Shown one piece after another: positions 610 through 61,456 of a stretch of 64,000 nucleotides of DNA. The DNA is taken from the sequence record MT129654.1; one strand, written 5' to 3'. The stretch is from Escherichia phage MN04. The position numbers and the translations under genes were made by a program. Each line of letters starts with the position of its first letter. Positions within the stretch are counted from its first letter, which is position 1. The notes beneath the pieces were generated by a model. It did no database searches, was not told the origin of the DNA, and saw only the letters and a list, made by a program, of their open reading frames with translations.

Positions 610-1614
610 ATGTTCAAGAAATATAGCAGTCTCGAAAACCACTACAACAGTAAGTTTATCGAAAAACTCCGTACTAACGGTTTGACTGGTGGTGAATGGG
701 TAGCACGTGAGAAGATTCATGGAACCAACTTTAGTTTAATCATAGAACGTGACGCAGTCACATGCGCCAAGCGCACTGGCCCTATCCTCCCTGCTGAAGA
801 TTTCTATGGTTATGAAATTGTACTCAAGAACTATGCTGATTCTATTAAATCCGTTCAACATCTAATTGAATCGATTAATTACCAGTCATACCAGATTTAT
901 GGCGAATTCGCTGGGCCAGGTATCCAGAAGAATGTGGACTACGGTGATAAAGACTTTTATGTGTTCGATATCCGAGTTACTAAGGAAGATGGCACTGAAT
1001 CTGTTCTAACCGATACATTGATGGAAGCCTTCTGTATTATCCATAAGTTTAAGGTAGCCCCATGTCTGGCCACTGGTAGCTTTGAAGACCTTATTAAATT
1101 ACCTAATGACTTTGATTCGGTTGTTCCTGATTATAATTTTGCAGTGGATAACGCAGGCTTAACTATTGCTAACTCAACCGATTTTATTCCTAAGGTTGAA
1201 GGTAAAGTATTCACGGCTGAAGGCTTTGTACTTAAACCTGATATTCCTACCTGGCTTCCTAATGGAAATCGTGTAGCGATTAAATGTAAGAACTCTAAAT
1301 TCAGCGAGAAGAAAAAGTCTGATAAGCCTATTAAAGCTGCAGTGGTTTTATCCCAAGATGATATGGATTTGATGTGGCAATTCACTGATTATGTGACTGT
1401 TAACCGCATTAATAATGTCATCAGTAAGATTGGTGAAGTATCTAAAAAGGATTTTGGAAAGGTAATGGGCTTGACAGTTCAAGATATCCTTGAAGAAGCT
1501 GCCCGTGAAGAATTAGAATTAACTGATGCCGAAAATCCTGTTGAAGTTAAAAAGCAGCTCGTTGAGTGCGTAAAAGATACCTTACGAGCCGTATGGATTG
1601 AATTAGTGTCATAA
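610..1614 (+). CDS. rnlB: RNA ligase 2 (Rnl2)
   Basis: 334 aa; N-terminus [20 protein letters not shown] and KIHGTNF lysine-adenylylation motif as in T4 Rnl2; convergent with gene 24 as in T4. Confidence 0.9.
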
Positions 1615-1620
1615 GACGAC

Positions 1621-1646
1621 AAAGGGACCTTACGGTCCCTTTTTAG
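1621..1646. terminator. Bidirectional terminator between convergent rnlB and gp24 paralog
   Basis: AAAGGGACC-TTAC-GGTCCCTTT hairpin with flanking T/A runs. Confidence 0.6.
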
Positions 1647-2926
1647 TTTTTATCCAATGGAGGAAGTTTTACACCAAGATAAGAACTCAATTGACTTTGA
1701 TTAGCCATTTTGTCCATATCCGCACCATCAATAATACGAGCTTCTTTGTCGTCTTTAGCGACGGTATAAGGATTCGCAGTCAATGCATACCGAGCCAATA
1801 AAGATATGGTAGGTTGCAATGAATCCGGGTCTACAATAACCTTGAATTCACCTACTGAAGTATCACCTTCATCATCAACCTCTTCGAGCCCTTCCGTATA
1901 AGGCGCATAATACAAAGATGCGACCGTCTGCCCTTCACCCATCTGAGCATTTACACCGACAATAACATAATCACACGGGCTATTCATATCAGCATAAAGT
2001 GGTAGACCGTTCTTTAATACGCCATAAGCTAATTCGTCTTGGTCTTCTTTTTTCTCAACCCAACCGGATGCAGCTAAAATAGCAGCGCAGCGAGAAGAAG
2101 CTACTGCATAAGTACCTGCAAACGAAGTCTGGCGTTGAACAGCAGAATTCATTTCACACATATAGTAATACAAGGTACGTGCTCGGTCTTGGGCGTTATC
2201 GTATTGTGGGTCTGTTAAGTTCAAGACACCTTTCTCAGAAACTCCTTGGACTTTAAAACGAGAACTTACCGTAATTAAGGACTGTAATACGTCTTTATTA
2301 ATTTCTTCAGCCATTTGAATAGCCAAAATATTGTCTATAAAGTCCGGTGCATTAAACCCGTTGGATTCTAAATCCTGGGCCAGTTCCACAGTCAAAGAAG
2401 TTTTAAGTTTACGCGATTTAACTTCAGTCTGCCACTTATCAATACGGAACCCTGCTTCAGCAATCTCAGGATGACCTTTTTCAAATTTATTGGTAAAGGC
2501 TGCATCAGACATCATACGAATATGGCCCGCGGCAATAGCTTCTGAAATAACTTCACTCAAATCGGTTTCAGTTGTTCCTGCAAACGGAGAAGCTTCTAAT
2601 ACCTTGAAAACCACACTTTCGAATTGGAACATATCGCCAACAGCATATGCTTCGTCTTTATCGGTGAACTCAGGAATGTTTTTACGTTCGAACATACCAA
2701 TTTCGCCTGCAAAAGTGGCTCCGCCGAGATAAGTCATTTTATCGTCTGGGTTTAAAACACGGACACCATATAATGCTGCAACAGGTTGAGTAGTTTTTTG
2801 TTCAGCAACAAGGGCTTTAAAAATTCTTTTATTAGTTGCCTGGGTATATGAAAGAAGATTAGGACGGGCGACCTGGTTGGCCGCCGTCAAAGTTGATTCT
2901 TGTATTAATGCATTAATCTTTTTCAT
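1643..2926 (-). CDS. gp24: Head vertex protein gp24, divergent second paralog
   Basis: 427 aa; clearly paralogous to adjacent gp24 (shared KSRKLKT, ELAQD, NKDVLQSLITVS, NPYTVAKDDKEAR); start ATG abuts upstream stop (TAAATG). Confidence 0.8.
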   Translation of the reverse strand: MKKINALIQESTLTAANQVARPNLLSYTQATNKRIFKALVAEQKTTQPVAALYGVRVLNPDDKMTYLGGATFAGEIGMFERKNIPEFTDKDEAYAVGDMFQFESVVFKVLEASPFAGTTETDLSEVISEAIAAGHIRMMSDAAFTNKFEKGHPEIAEAGFRIDKWQTEVKSRKLKTSLTVELAQDLESNGFNAPDFIDNILAIQMAEEINKDVLQSLITVSSRFKVQGVSEKGVLNLTDPQYDNAQDRARTLYYYMCEMNSAVQRQTSFAGTYAVASSRCAAILAASGWVEKKEDQDELAYGVLKNGLPLYADMNSPCDYVIVGVNAQMGEGQTVASLYYAPYTEGLEEVDDEGDTSVGEFKVIVDPDSLQPTISLLARYALTANPYTVAKDDKEARIIDGADMDKMANQSQLSSYLGVKLPPLDKN

Positions 2927-4207
2927 TTATGCCTCGTAAATAATCGGAGGAAGTTTAACACCAAGCAGATAAGACATGTTACTCTGACCTGCCATTAAAT
3001 CCATATTAGTTGCGTCTATAACACGAGCTTCTTTATCATCTTTAGCAACGGTATATGGGTTTGCTGAAAGTGCATAACGAACCATCAGAGAAATAGCCGG
3101 TTGTAAACTATCAGGGTCTACAATAACTTTATACGCACCAACATGTTCTTGGTCGTCTAAATCCAGACCTTCGGTATACGGAGCATAGAAAATAGAACCA
3201 ACTACTTCATTACCGCCGTAATCTTCTTTAACGCCTACGATAACATAATCTAAAGGACTATTAACATCACAGAATACAGGCAATCCATTAATCAAATAAC
3301 CGTAAGCAGTTTCTGGGAGCCAAGCTTCATCTTCTGGTTTATGTTTCAACCAACCTGAACCAGCGAGCATAGCAGCAGCACGACTAGATGCGACAACAAA
3401 CGTACCTGAATAAGAAGTGGTTTTCTGAATTTCAGAATTCATCTCACAAACCATTTCATATAATTTACGTGCACTTTCTGGGGCGGAATTATAGGACAAA
3501 TCAATAATACCATTATCAGATACACCAGTTACTTTGTAACGTTTAGATACGGTAATCAAGGATTGTAGTACGTCTTTATTGATTTCATCAGCCATTACAG
3601 TGGCTAAAAGGTCTTCTAAGAACGCAGGGGCGTCGAAGCCATTGGATTCCATGTCTTGGGCTAGTTCTACAGTCAAAGCGGTTTTAAGTTTACGAGACTT
3701 AACAGGTGCGTTCCATTTATTAACCTGGAATACTGCATTACTAATTTCAACATCACCTGCTTCGAATTTCTCTGTGTGAGCCGCATCAGGAACCAGACGA
3801 CATGTTAATGACACCAAACCTTCTTGAAGGGCCTCAGCCAATTCTGTAGCGCTAGTGGATGCGAGTGGGCTTGCTTGAAGAGCCTTATAAACTATGTTCT
3901 GATACTTGAAATATTCACCCTTGGCAATAGCCTGGGCCTTATCTGTGAGTTCTGGGATAGTTTCACGGTCTTTAGAACCAACTTCACCGCCATAAACGGC
4001 ACCAGTTTGGAAGCTAAATTCATTATCAGGAGTAAGATATTTGACACCATACAATGCAGCAATAGGCTGGCTAGTACGTTGTTCAGCAATAATATCACGG
4101 TAAATCAATTTGGTTGTAGCACGGGTCAAAGCAACAAGATTAGGGCGACCCAATGAGTTGCTAGAAGTAGTTGTTGACTCGCGCAGTAATTCGTTAATCT
4201 TTGCCAT
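2927..4207 (-). CDS. gp24: Head vertex protein gp24
   Basis: 426 aa; MAKINELLRESTTT N-terminus and overall match to T4 gp24; adjacent to gp23. Confidence 0.85.
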   Translation of the reverse strand: MAKINELLRESTTTSSNSLGRPNLVALTRATTKLIYRDIIAEQRTSQPIAALYGVKYLTPDNEFSFQTGAVYGGEVGSKDRETIPELTDKAQAIAKGEYFKYQNIVYKALQASPLASTSATELAEALQEGLVSLTCRLVPDAAHTEKFEAGDVEISNAVFQVNKWNAPVKSRKLKTALTVELAQDMESNGFDAPAFLEDLLATVMADEINKDVLQSLITVSKRYKVTGVSDNGIIDLSYNSAPESARKLYEMVCEMNSEIQKTTSYSGTFVVASSRAAAMLAGSGWLKHKPEDEAWLPETAYGYLINGLPVFCDVNSPLDYVIVGVKEDYGGNEVVGSIFYAPYTEGLDLDDQEHVGAYKVIVDPDSLQPAISLMVRYALSANPYTVAKDDKEARVIDATNMDLMAGQSNMSYLLGVKLPPIIYEA

Positions 4208-4623: not shown

Positions 4624-6183
4624 TTAGATACCTTTAACATATACGCGACGGAAGTAACCATTCAGACCGAGGCTGTTAACGATGTCAGGCATACCATTCT
4701 GAATACGTTTGGTAGGTGCCTGAGCAGCTGGGTCAGCGAACGGGTTAATACCGATACCGTAACGAGTTTTGAAGCCCATTACCGGTTGGAAGTTCTTCGG
4801 ATCGGAACCACGCAGCGGAGTCAGCGCAACGTACGGAGCATAGTAGATACCTGCGTCCATTTCGTTGGAACCTTTATAACCGATGGTGAAGTAATCGGAA
4901 CGAGCATACTGGTCGATGTAAACACGATATTTACCACCAAGAACACCGGCAAATACTGCTTTGGTTGTGTCAACGTTGAAACCCTGACCCAGACCTTGAG
5001 CTGCATAACTTACAGAAGTATCAACTGCAGCCAGTACGTTAACTACGTTACGGGAAGCGATGATGAAGTTACCAGCACCACGACCGGTCTGACGAGCGAT
5101 TTCGGCTGCTTCTTTATCAATCTGGAACAGAAGGGCTTTAAAGCTCTCACCGGCCCAACGAGCACCACGGATATCAATCGGGTCCTGGAAGTCAAACACA
5201 CCAGCTTTAGCGCCAACGGTGTTGGTCATACCAGATTTACCAACCTGTGCAGAGTAGTTAATCCAATCGATAACTTCACGGTTGATTTCGAGCATAATTT
5301 CGGTAGCAAGGATACCGGACAGTTCAGCATCTGCATCCATACCGTGTACTGCACGAAGGTCCTGTGCCAGTTCGATAGAGTAGCTTGCTTTCAGCTGACG
5401 AGATTTAGCTTCGATAACTTGTTTGTCGATGCGGAAGCCCATTTCGTTCCACGGGTTATCGGTAGAACCGTTGAAACCTTCCTGAAGTTCGGCGATAGAA
5501 GTAGCCATACCTTCAGCGATTTCAGCCAGCTGACCAGCTTCAACCAGAGCGGTAACAGCAGCATCCAGTTTAGCGGCATCAGTAGCGCCTGCATCAACGG
5601 TTACAGCTTCAACAGCCTGGAAGTGTGCAGAACCGGTAGCTTCGAAGAAGTGAGAATAAATTTTACCAACTTCCAGAACTTTGCTTGCAGCCAGTGCTTC
5701 GAAAGTTTCAGCAGCACCCTGACCAGAGAACATAGCGTTCGGAGCATACATCGGATGGAAAGCTTCTTTAGCGCCTGCAGCGATAGGGTCTTTACCATAT
5801 ACTGCACGCAGTGCAAATACCTGACCGGTAGGGTTATTCAGAGGCTGAACACCACAAATATCAAAAGCAATCAGATGAGGAATAGCACGACGAACCATAC
5901 CCATTACTGCCGGCCCAATCTGAGTTACAGCACCAGAAGTCTGGCCAGCTGCGATATTGGTAGCATCATAACCGTGGTCACCACCAATTTCAGCTTCGGT
6001 CAGGAAAGAACCAAATGCTTCAGAGATTTTTTCATCACGGTATTCCGGGGCAGTCAGGATGTCTTGTTCCTGGTTTTCGAAAATTTTAGCGATGATAGCT
6101 TGTTTAGAAGCACCAACGATTTCAGGAAGAGCTTCGTTTTCCAGCAGAGCGGACCATTTTTGAACTAATGCATTCTTTTTCAT
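4624..6183 (-). CDS. gp23: Major capsid protein gp23
   Basis: 519 aa; N-terminal propeptide and body closely match T4 gp23. Confidence 0.95.
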   Translation of the reverse strand: MKKNALVQKWSALLENEALPEIVGASKQAIIAKIFENQEQDILTAPEYRDEKISEAFGSFLTEAEIGGDHGYDATNIAAGQTSGAVTQIGPAVMGMVRRAIPHLIAFDICGVQPLNNPTGQVFALRAVYGKDPIAAGAKEAFHPMYAPNAMFSGQGAAETFEALAASKVLEVGKIYSHFFEATGSAHFQAVEAVTVDAGATDAAKLDAAVTALVEAGQLAEIAEGMATSIAELQEGFNGSTDNPWNEMGFRIDKQVIEAKSRQLKASYSIELAQDLRAVHGMDADAELSGILATEIMLEINREVIDWINYSAQVGKSGMTNTVGAKAGVFDFQDPIDIRGARWAGESFKALLFQIDKEAAEIARQTGRGAGNFIIASRNVVNVLAAVDTSVSYAAQGLGQGFNVDTTKAVFAGVLGGKYRVYIDQYARSDYFTIGYKGSNEMDAGIYYAPYVALTPLRGSDPKNFQPVMGFKTRYGIGINPFADPAAQAPTKRIQNGMPDIVNSLGLNGYFRRVYVKGI

Positions 6184-39323: not shown

Positions 39324-39397
39324 GGCCCTGTAGCTGGACGGTCAAGCGAGCGACTCATAATCGCTGGATGGTGGTTCGATTCCACCCAGGGCCACCA
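39324..39397 (+). tRNA. tRNA-Met (anticodon CAU; could be Ile2 if lysidine-modified)
   Basis: Perfect 7-bp acceptor stem, anticodon stem AGCGA/TCGCT with loop CTCATAA, T-arm GGTGG-TTCGATT-CCACC, encoded CCA. Confidence 0.8.
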
Positions 39398-39401
39398 ATT
39401 T

Positions 39402-39476
39402 GGATGTGTAGCTCAGTGGTAGAGCAGTTGACTGTTAATCAATTGGTCCATGGTTCGAATCCATGCATGTCCGCCA
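39402..39476 (+). tRNA. tRNA-Asn (anticodon GUU)
   Basis: Cloverleaf: D-arm GCTC/GAGC, anticodon loop CTGTTAA, T-arm CATGG-TTCGAAT-CCATG, acceptor with two G-U pairs, CCA. Confidence 0.75.
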
Positions 39477-39480
39477 AATA

Positions 39481-39556
39481 CGAGGCATAGCTCAGAAGGA
39501 AGAGCAACGGTCTTCTAAACCGTAGGTCGTAGGTTCGATCCCTACTGTCTCGACCA
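39481..39556 (+). tRNA. tRNA-Arg (anticodon UCU)
   Basis: Cloverleaf: D-arm GCTC/GAGC, anticodon stem ACGGT/ACCGT loop CTTCTAA, T-arm GTAGG-TTCGATC-CCTAC, CCA. Confidence 0.85.
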
Positions 39557-57938: not shown

Positions 57939-58391
57939 ATGATTATCAATTCAAACTCTTGGCACGTTAAATTACACGACCGTTTTTATGACCGTCATTC
58001 TCGACCGCACTCTTTGTGTGCTTATTTCTGGAAAATGGTTTGGGCTTGTTTTGCTTGTGCCATTGTTGCAGGTAGTACGCTTTTTGGATTAACTGTTGCA
58101 GGCGCTGGTGTATTAGAGCATTTCTTTGTATTAAGTACTCCCGTTCTGTTGAGTCTAGGGTTTGTTTTAGGGTTGATTGCAATAGCTCTTATTATTGCTC
58201 TATCCATTGGTTTGGCATTAGGTGCGATGAATTTACACGCGTGGTATGATGCACGTAGAGAAGAAAAGGAATGGCAACGTATTCAAGCTGAGCGTGAAGG
58301 CCGAGAAACTAAAGAAAATATCGTCGTCCAATACATTAAAGCTCGTAAATCTAAGATGTGTCCTGTAATCCACTTCGAGAACAAAGAATGA
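57939..58391 (+). CDS. Membrane protein (hypothetical)
   Basis: 150 aa; two long TM segments. Confidence 0.5.
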   Translation: MIINSNSWHVKLHDRFYDRHSRPHSLCAYFWKMVWACFACAIVAGSTLFGLTVAGAGVLEHFFVLSTPVLLSLGFVLGLIAIALIIALSIGLALGAMNLHAWYDARREEKEWQRIQAEREGRETKENIVVQYIKARKSKMCPVIHFENKE

Positions 58392-59398
58392 GAACTGTTA
58401 TGAAAGGCTACTTCGGTAGCCACCTTTATGGAACAAGTACTCCGGAATCTGATGTCGATTTTAAAGAAATCTTTGTTCCACATCCGCGTGATATTCTGTT
58501 AGGTACGGCTATGAACCATACCAACCTGAACACGAATAACACTGCTTCCAAAAACACTAAAGATGATGTTGACCATGAGCTTTATAGTCTGAAATATTTC
58601 TTTAAACTGGCTGCTGAAGGCGAAACCGTTGCTCTGGATATGCTCCACACTCCGCCTGAAATGGTGGTTAAATCTGATTTACCTGATGTATGGAAATTTA
58701 TCCAAGACAACCGTTCTCGGTTCTATACAACCAACATGAAAGCCTATTTAGGGTACGTCCGTAAGCAAGCTTCTAAATATGGTGTTAAGGGTTCTCGACT
58801 GGCTGCTCTGCGTGGTGTACTGGCTATTGTTAACCAGATTCCTGAACAATGGGTCGATTATCAAGAAGACGGTTCGACTAAGCAACGTCGCACTAAGGTA
58901 GAAGATATCAAACATCGACTCCCTGAAAATGAGTTCTGTGAATGGGTATTCCATAACCATGAGAAAACAGGACCTCAAACGTTCTATACTGTTCTCGGAC
59001 GTAAGTACCAAACCACTTTGTCATTAATCGAGCTCAAGCAATCTCTGAATAAGCTCGATGCGGAATATGGTGAACGCGCTCGTAAAGCTGAAGCTAACGA
59101 AGGTATTGACTGGAAAGCTCTGAGCCATGCTTATCGTGCTGGTTATCAGTTGAAGGAAATCTATCAAACTGGTGACCTCCAATATCCTTTACGTACAGCA
59201 CCGTTTATCCTTGAAATCAAACAAGGGCTTCATGCTTTTAAAGATGTACAGGCCGAACTTGAAGCTATCGTTGATGAAGTCGAAACCAATGCTATCTGGG
59301 CCGCTAAGAACGGCATGCCTGAGAAGGTAGACATGAAGTTCTGGGACAAGTTCGTTGAAGAGGTGTACCTTGACAACCACAACGCTTATTACCGCTAA
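58388..59398 (+). CDS. Nucleotidyltransferase-fold protein (hypothetical)
   Basis: ATG 58388 (ATGA overlap; alt 58400); 'GYFGSHLYGTSTPESDVDF' = GS-x11-DxD NTase signature, downstream third Asp (ALDMLH). Confidence 0.55.
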   Translation: MRTVMKGYFGSHLYGTSTPESDVDFKEIFVPHPRDILLGTAMNHTNLNTNNTASKNTKDDVDHELYSLKYFFKLAAEGETVALDMLHTPPEMVVKSDLPDVWKFIQDNRSRFYTTNMKAYLGYVRKQASKYGVKGSRLAALRGVLAIVNQIPEQWVDYQEDGSTKQRRTKVEDIKHRLPENEFCEWVFHNHEKTGPQTFYTVLGRKYQTTLSLIELKQSLNKLDAEYGERARKAEANEGIDWKALSHAYRAGYQLKEIYQTGDLQYPLRTAPFILEIKQGLHAFKDVQAELEAIVDEVETNAIWAAKNGMPEKVDMKFWDKFVEEVYLDNHNAYYR

Positions 59399-59594
59399 AG
59401 AAGAAATTAACGTCTTTCTATCGTATGGAAGACCTCATAAAACTCGACGTTGGTATCTTGAAGCTGTCTGTAAAGAAACCGGACGTCGAGTCAATGTCAA
59501 ATACGTATGTAAACCGTCTCCCAAACAAACTCGCAGGTTTGTTAACTGGGCTATCAATACTATAAGATTCCATAATTTTTGGAGTGCAATATAA
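59355..59594 (+). CDS. Small basic ORF, questionable
   Basis: TTG-initiated, overlaps 3' end of upstream gene; terminator follows directly. Confidence 0.25.
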   Translation: MKRCTLTTTTLITAKEEINVFLSYGRPHKTRRWYLEAVCKETGRRVNVKYVCKPSPKQTRRFVNWAINTIRFHNFWSAI

Positions 59595-59616
59595 GGGCCG
59601 TATGGCCCTTTTTTTG
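59595..59616. terminator. Bidirectional terminator (GGGCC-GTAT-GGCCC then T7)
   Basis: Separates plus-strand early unit from convergent minus-strand collagen-like gene. Confidence 0.65.
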
Positions 59617-59617
59617 T

Positions 59618-60373
59618 TTACGAAGTCACTGTTTGTTCGGCTACTAACAATGCAGAGGTTATTGTAAAGTTGCCGCCATTTGGCGTAACAGTTATAGCTG
59701 TACCATTGGTTGCCATTGGCCCATCTTTATCAATGCTAAAGAACGTCGTAAAAGACAAAATATCTGTAGCATTTTCTGGACGGTTCTGTATATAGGAGTT
59801 TCCGTTGGTTCCAACGAAATTTAATGTTATACTTCGAGCTTGCGAGACTCCTGTAAAATTACCAATAAGGTTGAGTTTAAACATTAGGCTTCTGTCTTGC
59901 TTATATGGCCACATCTTATCATCAGCGGTTCTAAAAAACGGAGATAGAGTCCCTGCTGTCGGCGGAATCCCCTTTAAAATACTAATTATGTTTGAAGCCG
60001 CACCATTAGTTAATAGAACGTTTATACCACTCCAAAACACTTCTGATTTTCTTCTCTTTCCTGCTGTTGCAGTCAAAAAATCATCTACTGTTCCACTATT
60101 ACCCTCATCAATCCATAATTGGTATGAAGACTTTCCTGGTTCACCTTGAACTCCCGGGTCGCCAGGATTTCCCGGGTCACCTTTATCACCTTTTTGTCCA
60201 GGAGGTCCTGGAATCTGGGTAACTGATTTTGACATCGTTTGAAAGAACCGTTCGCTGTTATCAGTTACGGTATTAGGAAGGACTACCGTTGAACCAAAAA
60301 GATGCCAGTTATCGTCTAATGCTAACTGGACCTTCTCGTTCAATTCATCGATGGTTTTTGCTGATAAAATCAT
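59618..60373 (-). CDS. Collagen-like repeat protein (putative virion fiber or decoration protein), late gene
   Basis: 251 aa; G-X-Y run 'GPPGQKGDKGDPGNPGDPGVQGEPG'; late promoter TATAAATA plus AAGGAG RBS upstream. Confidence 0.65.
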   Translation of the reverse strand: MILSAKTIDELNEKVQLALDDNWHLFGSTVVLPNTVTDNSERFFQTMSKSVTQIPGPPGQKGDKGDPGNPGDPGVQGEPGKSSYQLWIDEGNSGTVDDFLTATAGKRRKSEVFWSGINVLLTNGAASNIISILKGIPPTAGTLSPFFRTADDKMWPYKQDRSLMFKLNLIGNFTGVSQARSITLNFVGTNGNSYIQNRPENATDILSFTTFFSIDKDGPMATNGTAITVTPNGGNFTITSALLVAEQTVTS

Positions 60374-60409: not shown

Positions 60410-60450
60410 GTTTACACTTTCGTAGAGCATGTTATTATGGACCTATCAAA
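60410..60450 (+). promoter_or_regulatory. Early promoter module
   Basis: GTTTACA ... TGTTATTATGGACCTATCAAATC. Confidence 0.55.
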
Positions 60451-60475
60451 TCTACTGAGTGAAACGGAGAATATA

Positions 60476-61456
60476 ATGTTAACTATCAAAATCAACAAAG
60501 GTATCTATCGCGGTAATGAAATCTCTGGTACGTTCATGAGTTCAGGTAAAACCTGGTTCCCTAATAAAATTCATGAATCCGAAGCTCATCTCGGTGATGG
60601 CAAGGTATTTGTACAGATTGATGGTGTTGAACGTGGTGTATGGGTGTTCAAATGTGACGTTGAAATGGAAGGTGTTGAAGCTCCTGCAATGGTTACTGAA
60701 TCCGCTGAAGAAATGAAACATCGCATCAACAAACGTTTTAAAGTAATGAACATGATGACTAACGGAATCATTGATGGTAAAATTCGTTCCCTTATCATCT
60801 CTGGTGCCGCAGGTATCGGTAAAACGTATTCTTTGGATAAAGCATTACAAAATGCCCACGAAAATGAAACTATCGAATATAAATCAATCAACGGAAAGAT
60901 TAGTGGAATCGGTCTTTACGAGCAGCTTTGGAATAACCGCGGCCCTAATAGTGTTCTTCTTATTGATGATGTTGATGTATTCTCTGACATGGATATCCTG
61001 AACCTTCTTAAAGCTGCATTGGATACCGGTGAGAAACGTAAGGTGTGCTGGAGCACTTCAAGTTCTTATCTCGATGATAAAAATATCGATAAAGAATTCG
61101 AATACGAAGGCACCATCGTGTTCATCACCAACGTTGATATTGATCGTGAATTAGAGCGTGGAACTAAACTTGCTCCACACCTCCAAGCTTTAGTATCTCG
61201 TTCAGTTTACTTAGACCTCGGAGTTCACTCGAATGAAGAGATTATGGTTCGTGTTGAAGACGTTATCCTGTCCACCGATATGATGCAAAACCGAGGTCTG
61301 ACTGATGCTGAGACTTATCAAGCTCTAGCATGGATGAAGGCCAATGTATCTCGTCTTCGTAACGTATCATTACGTACAGCTCTTTATCTGGCGGACTTCA
61401 TTGCCACCGATAAAAATGACTGGAGCGAAATCGCCGAAGTTACACTTCTGAAATAA
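60476..61456 (+). CDS. P-loop ATPase, AAA+-like (hypothetical)
   Basis: ATG 60476 with GGAG RBS; Walker A 'GAAGIGKT', Walker B 'VLLIDDVD'. Confidence 0.6.
   Translation: MLTIKINKGIYRGNEISGTFMSSGKTWFPNKIHESEAHLGDGKVFVQIDGVERGVWVFKCDVEMEGVEAPAMVTESAEEMKHRINKRFKVMNMMTNGIIDGKIRSLIISGAAGIGKTYSLDKALQNAHENETIEYKSINGKISGIGLYEQLWNNRGPNSVLLIDDVDVFSDMDILNLLKAALDTGEKRKVCWSTSSSYLDDKNIDKEFEYEGTIVFITNVDIDRELERGTKLAPHLQALVSRSVYLDLGVHSNEEIMVRVEDVILSTDMMQNRGLTDAETYQALAWMKANVSRLRNVSLRTALYLADFIATDKNDWSEIAEVTLLK

Follow-up and report, generated by a model that had tools for sequence, protein, structure and literature searches.

NrdC.11 of a Dhakavirus is an RlaP-family nucleotidyltransferase and a candidate gap-filling enzyme in phage tRNA repair

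During infection, host anticodon nucleases cut tRNA, and T4 Pnk together with Rnl1 reverses simple cuts, a tRNA repair that is a textbook example of phage counter-defence. [quoted passage not shown] The RlaP family (RNA-ligase-associated Pol-beta) was named by Burroughs and Aravind (2016), as later papers relate, for its gene linkage to RNA ligases, with the prediction that its members put back nucleotides that RNA ends have lost, ahead of ligation.

Two members of this family, the Pseudomonas proteins PfRlaP and PaRlaP, were characterized in an unreviewed preprint of December 2025 (PMC12776372). They label RNA (rRNA-, tRNA- and fragment-sized), not DNA or protein, and they extend single-stranded RNAs; in particular, they add 1-2 NMPs (or dNMPs) to RNA 3'-OH ends with little base preference, and they are most active with Mn2+ or Co2+. 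In a nicked-tRNA mimic, the broken anticodon-loop end was favored over the acceptor end, and aminoacylation was partly rescued for a tRNA missing one nucleotide. The preprint also notes that the 3'-OH product fits T4-type 5'-phosphate ligases better than RtcB, and it places T4 NrdC.11 in cluster 5 of its SSN, whereas the characterized enzymes fall in cluster 1a. The literature on 'nrdC.11' itself consists of genome descriptions and one T4 deletion report, with no functional study found. T4 can do without the nrdC.11-mobD.3 block in the laboratory, and this tolerated loss fits an accessory counter-defence gene.

The nrdC.11 locus

The window (the whole 64,000-nt stretch of Escherichia phage MN04 DNA that was analyzed) comes from a Dhakavirus, a T-even phage like JS98, IME08 and KIT01. 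The ORF under study was confirmed at its full length, with a 336-aa product whose N-terminus is MRTVMKGYFGSHLYGTSTPESDVDFKEIF (Table 1). By sequence and gene order, it is the syntenic ortholog of T4 nrdC.11. In particular, T4 NrdC.11 (NP_049709, NC_000866 55435-56445; 'nucleotidyltransferase' in RefSeq) is also 336 aa long and aligns with the window protein end to end at 82% identity with zero gaps. The T4 gene occupies the matching place in its genome, between the mobD.1 region and nrdC.10, and the window's next gene but one (60437-61456, plus strand) is 77% identical to T4 NrdC.10. The original prediction, with no T4 counterpart at this position, was wrong on this point. Within the genus, the gene's DNA is 93-97% identical to many Dhakavirus genomes and the protein is 99% identical to that of phage KIT01. 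The IME08 counterpart is annotated as nrdC.11, 'nucleotidyltransferase', within the gene order tk, rI, rI.-1, mobD.3, mobD.1, membrane protein, nrdC.11 and nrdC.10. The gene is already known: it is a T4 gene that is commonly annotated as a nucleotidyltransferase, it falls into families of both Pfam and PHROG, its function has been predicted in print, and NrdC.11 is named in a biochemical study of its relatives.

The upstream neighbor in T4 is the mobD HNH homing endonuclease, directly adjoining nrdC.11, whereas the window has there a hydrophobic membrane protein of 150 aa (57939-58391, plus strand). The stop codon of this membrane ORF shares an ATGA with the start ATG of nrdC.11, an overlap that would be expected if both genes are translated from one early or middle transcript. 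An alternative GTG start, 30 nt upstream of the ATG at 58388, would yield 346 aa and is the version adopted by RefSeq in IME08; the ATG is preferred because the alignment with the 336-aa T4 protein is gap-free from end to end.

In T4 and IME08, nrdC.10 lies directly downstream of nrdC.11, whereas in the window a minus-strand ORF of 251 aa (59618-60373) is inserted between the two, on the strand opposite to the early genes around it. This ORF contains collagen-like G-x-y repeats at aa ~56-81 and matches Pfam Phage_tail_NK (Sf6-type tail needle knob) with an E value of 5e-32. It is absent from IME08 and T4; phage C6 (97.7%) alone has all of it, and ~27 other Dhakavirus records, some of them labeled 'tail needle knob', have a part. 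A short ORF past the nrdC.11 stop (window 59355-59610; 46 aa if started at ATG 59425, 79 aa if at TTG 59355), without a family match, closes at a terminator-like GC hairpin and T-run at 59593-59610. The nrdC.10 homologue carries the Walker-A motif GAAGIGKT and has weak, sub-threshold matches to AAA/STAND NTPase models.

Further features were observed elsewhere in the window. The rnlB gene adjoins two tandem ORFs of ~427 aa (1643-4207, minus strand) that correspond to the pair of gp24 vertex-protein genes (24a/24b) found duplicated in IME08; a 460-aa, TTG-initiated ORF (4786-6168, plus strand) is antisense to nearly all of a 519-aa ORF (4624-6183, minus strand) and is probably a chance ORF. The tRNA cluster (39324-39556, plus strand) has three genes only (Met-CAT, Asn-GTT and Arg-TCT), spaced 4 nt apart.

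Homologues of nrdC.11 are present in 1549 of 50,697 phage records, and a metagenome-scale library holds 3216 homologue clusters at 50% identity. Among T-even phages, the gene is mosaic by blocks, at aa ~140-200 in the insert region and over the last ~70 aa; the blocks come in a few discrete sequence types that have been recombined between lineages. For example, one phage record (P0046) joins a T4-like N-terminus to a window-like C-terminus. The labels of the orthologs vary as well: several phage records call the locus, and many source names call the protein, 'thioredoxin', while others read 'HNH homing endonuclease', 'ArsR regulator' or 'hypothetical protein'. The 'thioredoxin', 'HNH homing endonuclease' and 'ArsR regulator' labels are annotation errors, apparently borrowed from the name of the nrdC gene or of genes nearby.

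Table 1. Positions in the window of nrdC.11, its domains and motifs, and the nearest RNA ligase gene
Feature	Position	Strand	Evidence
nrdC.11 ortholog, 336-aa RlaP-family (PF10127) nucleotidyltransferase	58388..59398	+	ORF, T4 identity, Pfam, PHROG 388, KIT01 identity
NTase domain at the N-terminus (aa 1-135), where the Pfam RlaP match lies	58388..58792	+	
hG[GS] motif (G10-S11)	58415..58420	+	no variation among 61 homologues or in the six-way alignment with canonical RlaP
DxD metal-binding motif (D22-V23-D24)	58451..58459	+	D22 and D24 invariant; start of modeled strand 23-30
KNTKDDVD, signature of the family (aa 55-62), with D62 as its last residue	58550..58573	+	N56 and D62 invariant; D62 on strand 61-67
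D84 (acidic residue of ALDMLH)	58637..58639	+	nearly invariant; near-invariant Glu in canonical RlaP; helix 80-86 (DSSP on model)
Subdomain inserted in this clade (aa ~138-238), made up in order of a helix, two strands, a helix, three strands and a long helix	58799..59101	+	
Helical domain at the C-terminus (aa 239-336); K243, H247, R250, K278 and G280 are invariant	59102..59395	+	
rnlB (RNA ligase 2), probable pathway partner, 57 kb from nrdC.11	610..1614	+	Pfam RNA_ligase E 4e-20, T4_Rnl2_C E 5e-19; counterpart of IME08 rnlB

Family membership, active site and predicted structure

Profile comparisons place the window protein in the RlaP family (PF10127), of which it is a member. The Pfam model, whose gathering score is 23, matches at 43.1 bits (E 5e-11), covering only aa 8-134 (model positions 25-142), and PHROG 388, 'nucleotidyltransferase', matches over the full length (E 1e-133). 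The Pfam model is also matched by 60 of 61 diverse homologues that are 34-51% identical to the window protein. For comparison, a profile was built from the canonical, ~250-aa RlaPs of Bacillus and Bacillus phages (e.g. Bc431v3 orf177), which match the whole Pfam model. Aligned with hhalign, the NrdC.11-clade profile and the canonical profile match at 99.9% probability (E 3e-33) over 236 columns; the match spans clade-profile columns 5-320 and thus both domains, with one insertion breaking the alignment. Motifs common to both groups include GSxxYGTxTxxSDxDxKG (G10, S11, D22 and D24), KNTKDDVD (K55 to D62), NRxxF, GYxxxQ, DxKxxxHxxR (D241, K243, H247 and R250), KxG (K278 and G280) and LPxKxD (P311 and D315). 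What separates the two groups is a subdomain of ~100 aa (90-117 aa), inserted between the NTase and helical domains and found in every NrdC.11-type protein examined and missing from the Bacillus-type proteins, the canonical set aligned.

Four other memberships were considered and rejected. The original prediction had listed a CCA-adding enzyme among possible roles; no match to the CCA-adding / poly(A) polymerase family (PF01743) was found in Pfam or NCBIfam at E values up to 1. Membership among the cGAS/DncV-like CD-NTases is backed by no PADLOC defence-model match at E values up to 1, by no Pfam CD-NTase match and by no CD-NTase among the structural neighbors listed. An MntA-type MNT antitoxin was discarded because the NCBIfam MntA model scores 13.1 bits over 18 residues only, against a cut-off of 60, and no separate HEPN gene adjoins nrdC.11 in the window. 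Finally, HalB of the Hailong system shares an identity of only 11% with the protein, and no PADLOC defence model was matched at E values up to 1. Neither PADLOC nor NCBIfam thus yielded a family of use.

The original prediction took its nucleotidyltransferase reading from a Gly-Ser pair followed after 11 residues by Asp-x-Asp, together with a downstream acidic residue. The 336-aa ORF and both quoted strings are indeed present (the first, 'GYFGSHLYGTSTPESDVDF', spans aa 7-25 and the second, 'ALDMLH', aa 82-87), and the spacing between S11 and D22 is 10 residues rather than 11. As a hallmark, the short motif is non-specific and was dismissed as stand-alone evidence; of the 70 window ORFs that are 100 aa or longer, 5 contain the pattern G[GS]x9-13Dx[DE], as do 6% of shuffled versions of the NrdC.11 protein. 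The nucleotidyltransferase observation is nevertheless solid, because it is carried by the Pfam and PHROG 388 profile matches and by the invariance of G10, S11, D22 and D24. These four residues, with N56 and D62, are invariant among the 61 diverse homologues, and all of them except N56 were also found kept in a six-way alignment with canonical RlaP.

The catalytic triad is likely D22/D24/D62, since D62 shows no variation, belongs to a strand in the modeled catalytic domain and aligns with the invariant last Asp of the canonical KNTKDDVD, while D84 is placed in a helix. D84, the acidic residue of ALDMLH pointed out in the original prediction, is conserved, but it is modeled as helical and is thus probably an accessory residue rather than the third metal ligand. 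Overall, that prediction is supported in part, in its nucleotidyltransferase fold, and erred on the T4 counterpart and, probably, in its choice of the third acidic residue.

No relevant PDB chain was found by sequence, with either the single protein or a 61-sequence profile. An AlphaFold2 model built from a 69-sequence alignment (mean pLDDT 88.2, pTM 0.70) has an N-terminal NTase domain and a helical, HEPN/KNTase_C-like C-terminal domain. The predicted elements are, in order, a strand (2-9), the G-S turn with a short helix, a strand beginning at the DxD (23-30), a strand carrying D62 (61-67), helices to ~148, a five-stranded insert (154-208) and helices from 213 to 335. This two-domain model may correspond to the architecture described for the PfRlaP crystal structure (PMC12776372). 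A structure search of the PDB returned NTase-fold enzymes as the best matches of the catalytic domain (LinB, Tam41 and AadA); other neighbors were kanamycin nucleotidyltransferase and MNT/HEPN complexes, and the C-terminal domain is similar to HEPN/KNTase_C bundles. Among solved structures, the closest are HalB and kanamycin nucleotidyltransferase ANT(4'). Neither has a detectable sequence relationship to NrdC.11, and they differ from it in substrate (dATP, made into oligo-dA, for HalB; aminoglycosides for ANT(4')) and in genomic partners. Nothing in the PDB matched the inserted subdomain in structure.

Linkage to RNA repair genes and a candidate function

In T-even phages, nrdC.11 is not adjacent to RNA repair genes. 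In IME08, rnlB, pseT and rnlA are tens of kilobases off; in the window, the nearest ligase is rnlB, 57 kb upstream of nrdC.11 (Table 1). The pseT and rnlA genes are farther still. Among more distant members of the clade, such genes are close by. For example, three contigs from uncultivated phages (L081, L082 and L084) carry on one strand a fusion of an HD phosphohydrolase to a P-loop kinase, an Rnl1-type ligase and an RlaP, with a gap of 14 nt between the ligase and RlaP ORFs. In a fourth (L086), genes for an RlaP, an RNA_ligase-family protein and a Pnk (kinase and HAD phosphatase) abut or overlap. Looser linkages include an Rnl1 gene 3.5 kb upstream of the NrdC.11-type gene (L065), RtcB genes 4.3 and 2.5 kb downstream (L004 and L088), Pnk genes ~9 kb away (L068, L069, L070 and L079) and, in Sinorhizobium phage phiN3, a homologue annotated as NrdC.11 that is flanked by two RNA ligase genes, each 3-4 kb off. 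These more distant members, 39-46% identical to the window protein, have the insert and the invariant residues; in the cassette-linked proteins, all of the latter are kept. The tight, same-strand cassettes with a ligase and a kinase/phosphatase support, at the level of gene order, a partnership between NrdC.11-type enzymes and the heal-and-seal enzymes of 3'-OH/5'-P chemistry.

A gene for an HD_4-type (RelA/SpoT-like HD) phosphohydrolase also recurs near NrdC.11-type genes of uncultivated phages, as in L003 (8939-9445), where it overlaps the RlaP stop codon, and in L075, L078 and L088; in L081, an HD domain is the partner fused to the P-loop kinase. This phosphohydrolase may be an alternative end-healing phosphoesterase.

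The reading that we favor, with moderate confidence, is that NrdC.11 acts as a gap-filling RNA 3'-end nucleotidyltransferase within the phage Pnk/Rnl tRNA repair pathway. Its active site would hold two divalent metals, probably Mn2+, by D22, D24 and D62, and the enzyme would act by preference on the 5' half of a tRNA after a host anticodon nuclease, for example RloC, has cut the anticodon loop and trimmed it. Pnk would remove the 2',3'-cyclic phosphate or 3'-phosphate, leaving a 3'-OH, and phosphorylate the 5' end; NrdC.11 would then refill the lost nucleotide(s) by adding 1-2 untemplated NMPs to the 3'-OH; and Rnl1 or Rnl2 would seal the 3'-OH/5'-P nick. The basis provided here is the orthology, the family membership, the fold, the conserved active-site residues and the clade's linkage to RNA repair genes. 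The NMP-adding chemistry is taken from the literature on two distant Pseudomonas RlaPs only; by analogy with these, the phage enzyme would have the same activity. Its substrate would be tRNA, and the insert would help to bind RNA.

Several observations bear on the strength of this analogy. PfRlaP and PaRlaP share with NrdC.11 the Pfam family, apparently the NTase and helical architecture, the Asp triad, the family motifs and a linkage to RNA repair genes, but NrdC.11 is partnered by 5'-phosphate ligases (Rnl1/Rnl2) and Pnk rather than by RtcB/RtcA. In favor of a repair pathway, the Dhakavirus genus encodes rnlA, rnlB and pseT, as seen in IME08. Counted against it are the distance to the characterized RlaPs in the SSN, the Pfam match to the N-terminal half only and the lack of a local RNA repair neighbor in T-even phages. 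The ~100-aa insert could also alter the substrate or the product. Moreover, correct refilling would be inefficient if NrdC.11 resembles the published RlaPs, because they show little NTP selectivity.

Each of the rival readings is weaker than gap-filling repair. An unlikely one is that NrdC.11 tails or mends RNA 3' ends in general, either restoring trimmed tRNA 3'-CCA ends or adding short tails that alter the stability of host or phage transcripts. The wide range of RNA sizes labeled by the Pseudomonas enzymes and their extension of single-stranded RNAs (PMC12776372) would suit such a role, as would the separation of nrdC.11 from pseT and rnlA in T-even genomes; however, the same enzymes prefer a broken anticodon loop to the acceptor end, none of the Pfam families of CCA-adding enzymes or poly(A) polymerases is matched, and the clade's cassettes point to heal-and-seal repair. 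We regard as very unlikely the nucleotidylation of a protein or small molecule, in the manner of MNT antitoxins that AMPylate HEPN toxins or of the ANT/Lnu antibiotic enzymes. The combination of an NTase domain with a HEPN/KNTase_C-like helical bundle is common to NrdC.11 and to these structural neighbors (kanamycin nucleotidyltransferase, LinB, AadA and the MNT/HEPN complexes), but the resemblance is at the level of the fold only, no defence profile is matched and the clade's neighbors are RNA repair genes. A synthase of nucleotide signals or oligonucleotides directed against host immunity, such as a HalB-like maker of oligodeoxyadenylate that keeps the HalA channel closed, is highly improbable, since the resemblance to HalB is again one of fold (11% identity), no PADLOC model (E up to 1) or CD-NTase profile is matched, the sequence is unambiguously that of an RlaP, RlaPs did not extend DNA (PMC12776372) and the neighbors in related phages are RNA repair genes, not signaling or defence genes.

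Gap-filling repair by NrdC.11 is directly testable with existing T4 genetics. The idea of refilling has already been published for the RlaP family, and the window brings no new concept to it; what is added here is comparative support, namely the three-gene cassettes that join NrdC.11-type genes to those of a ligase and a kinase/phosphatase, and the clade's own inserted subdomain. It is possible, though doubtful, that this insert is a substrate-recognition module that chooses a particular damaged tRNA or nucleotide; if so, insert-based recognition would address the fidelity problem left by the non-selective bacterial RlaPs and would render T-even phages resistant to RloC-type nucleases. More broadly, if NrdC.11 refills the excised nucleotide, then T-even phages would already have an answer to RloC, and the heal-and-seal pathway would become one of heal, fill and seal.
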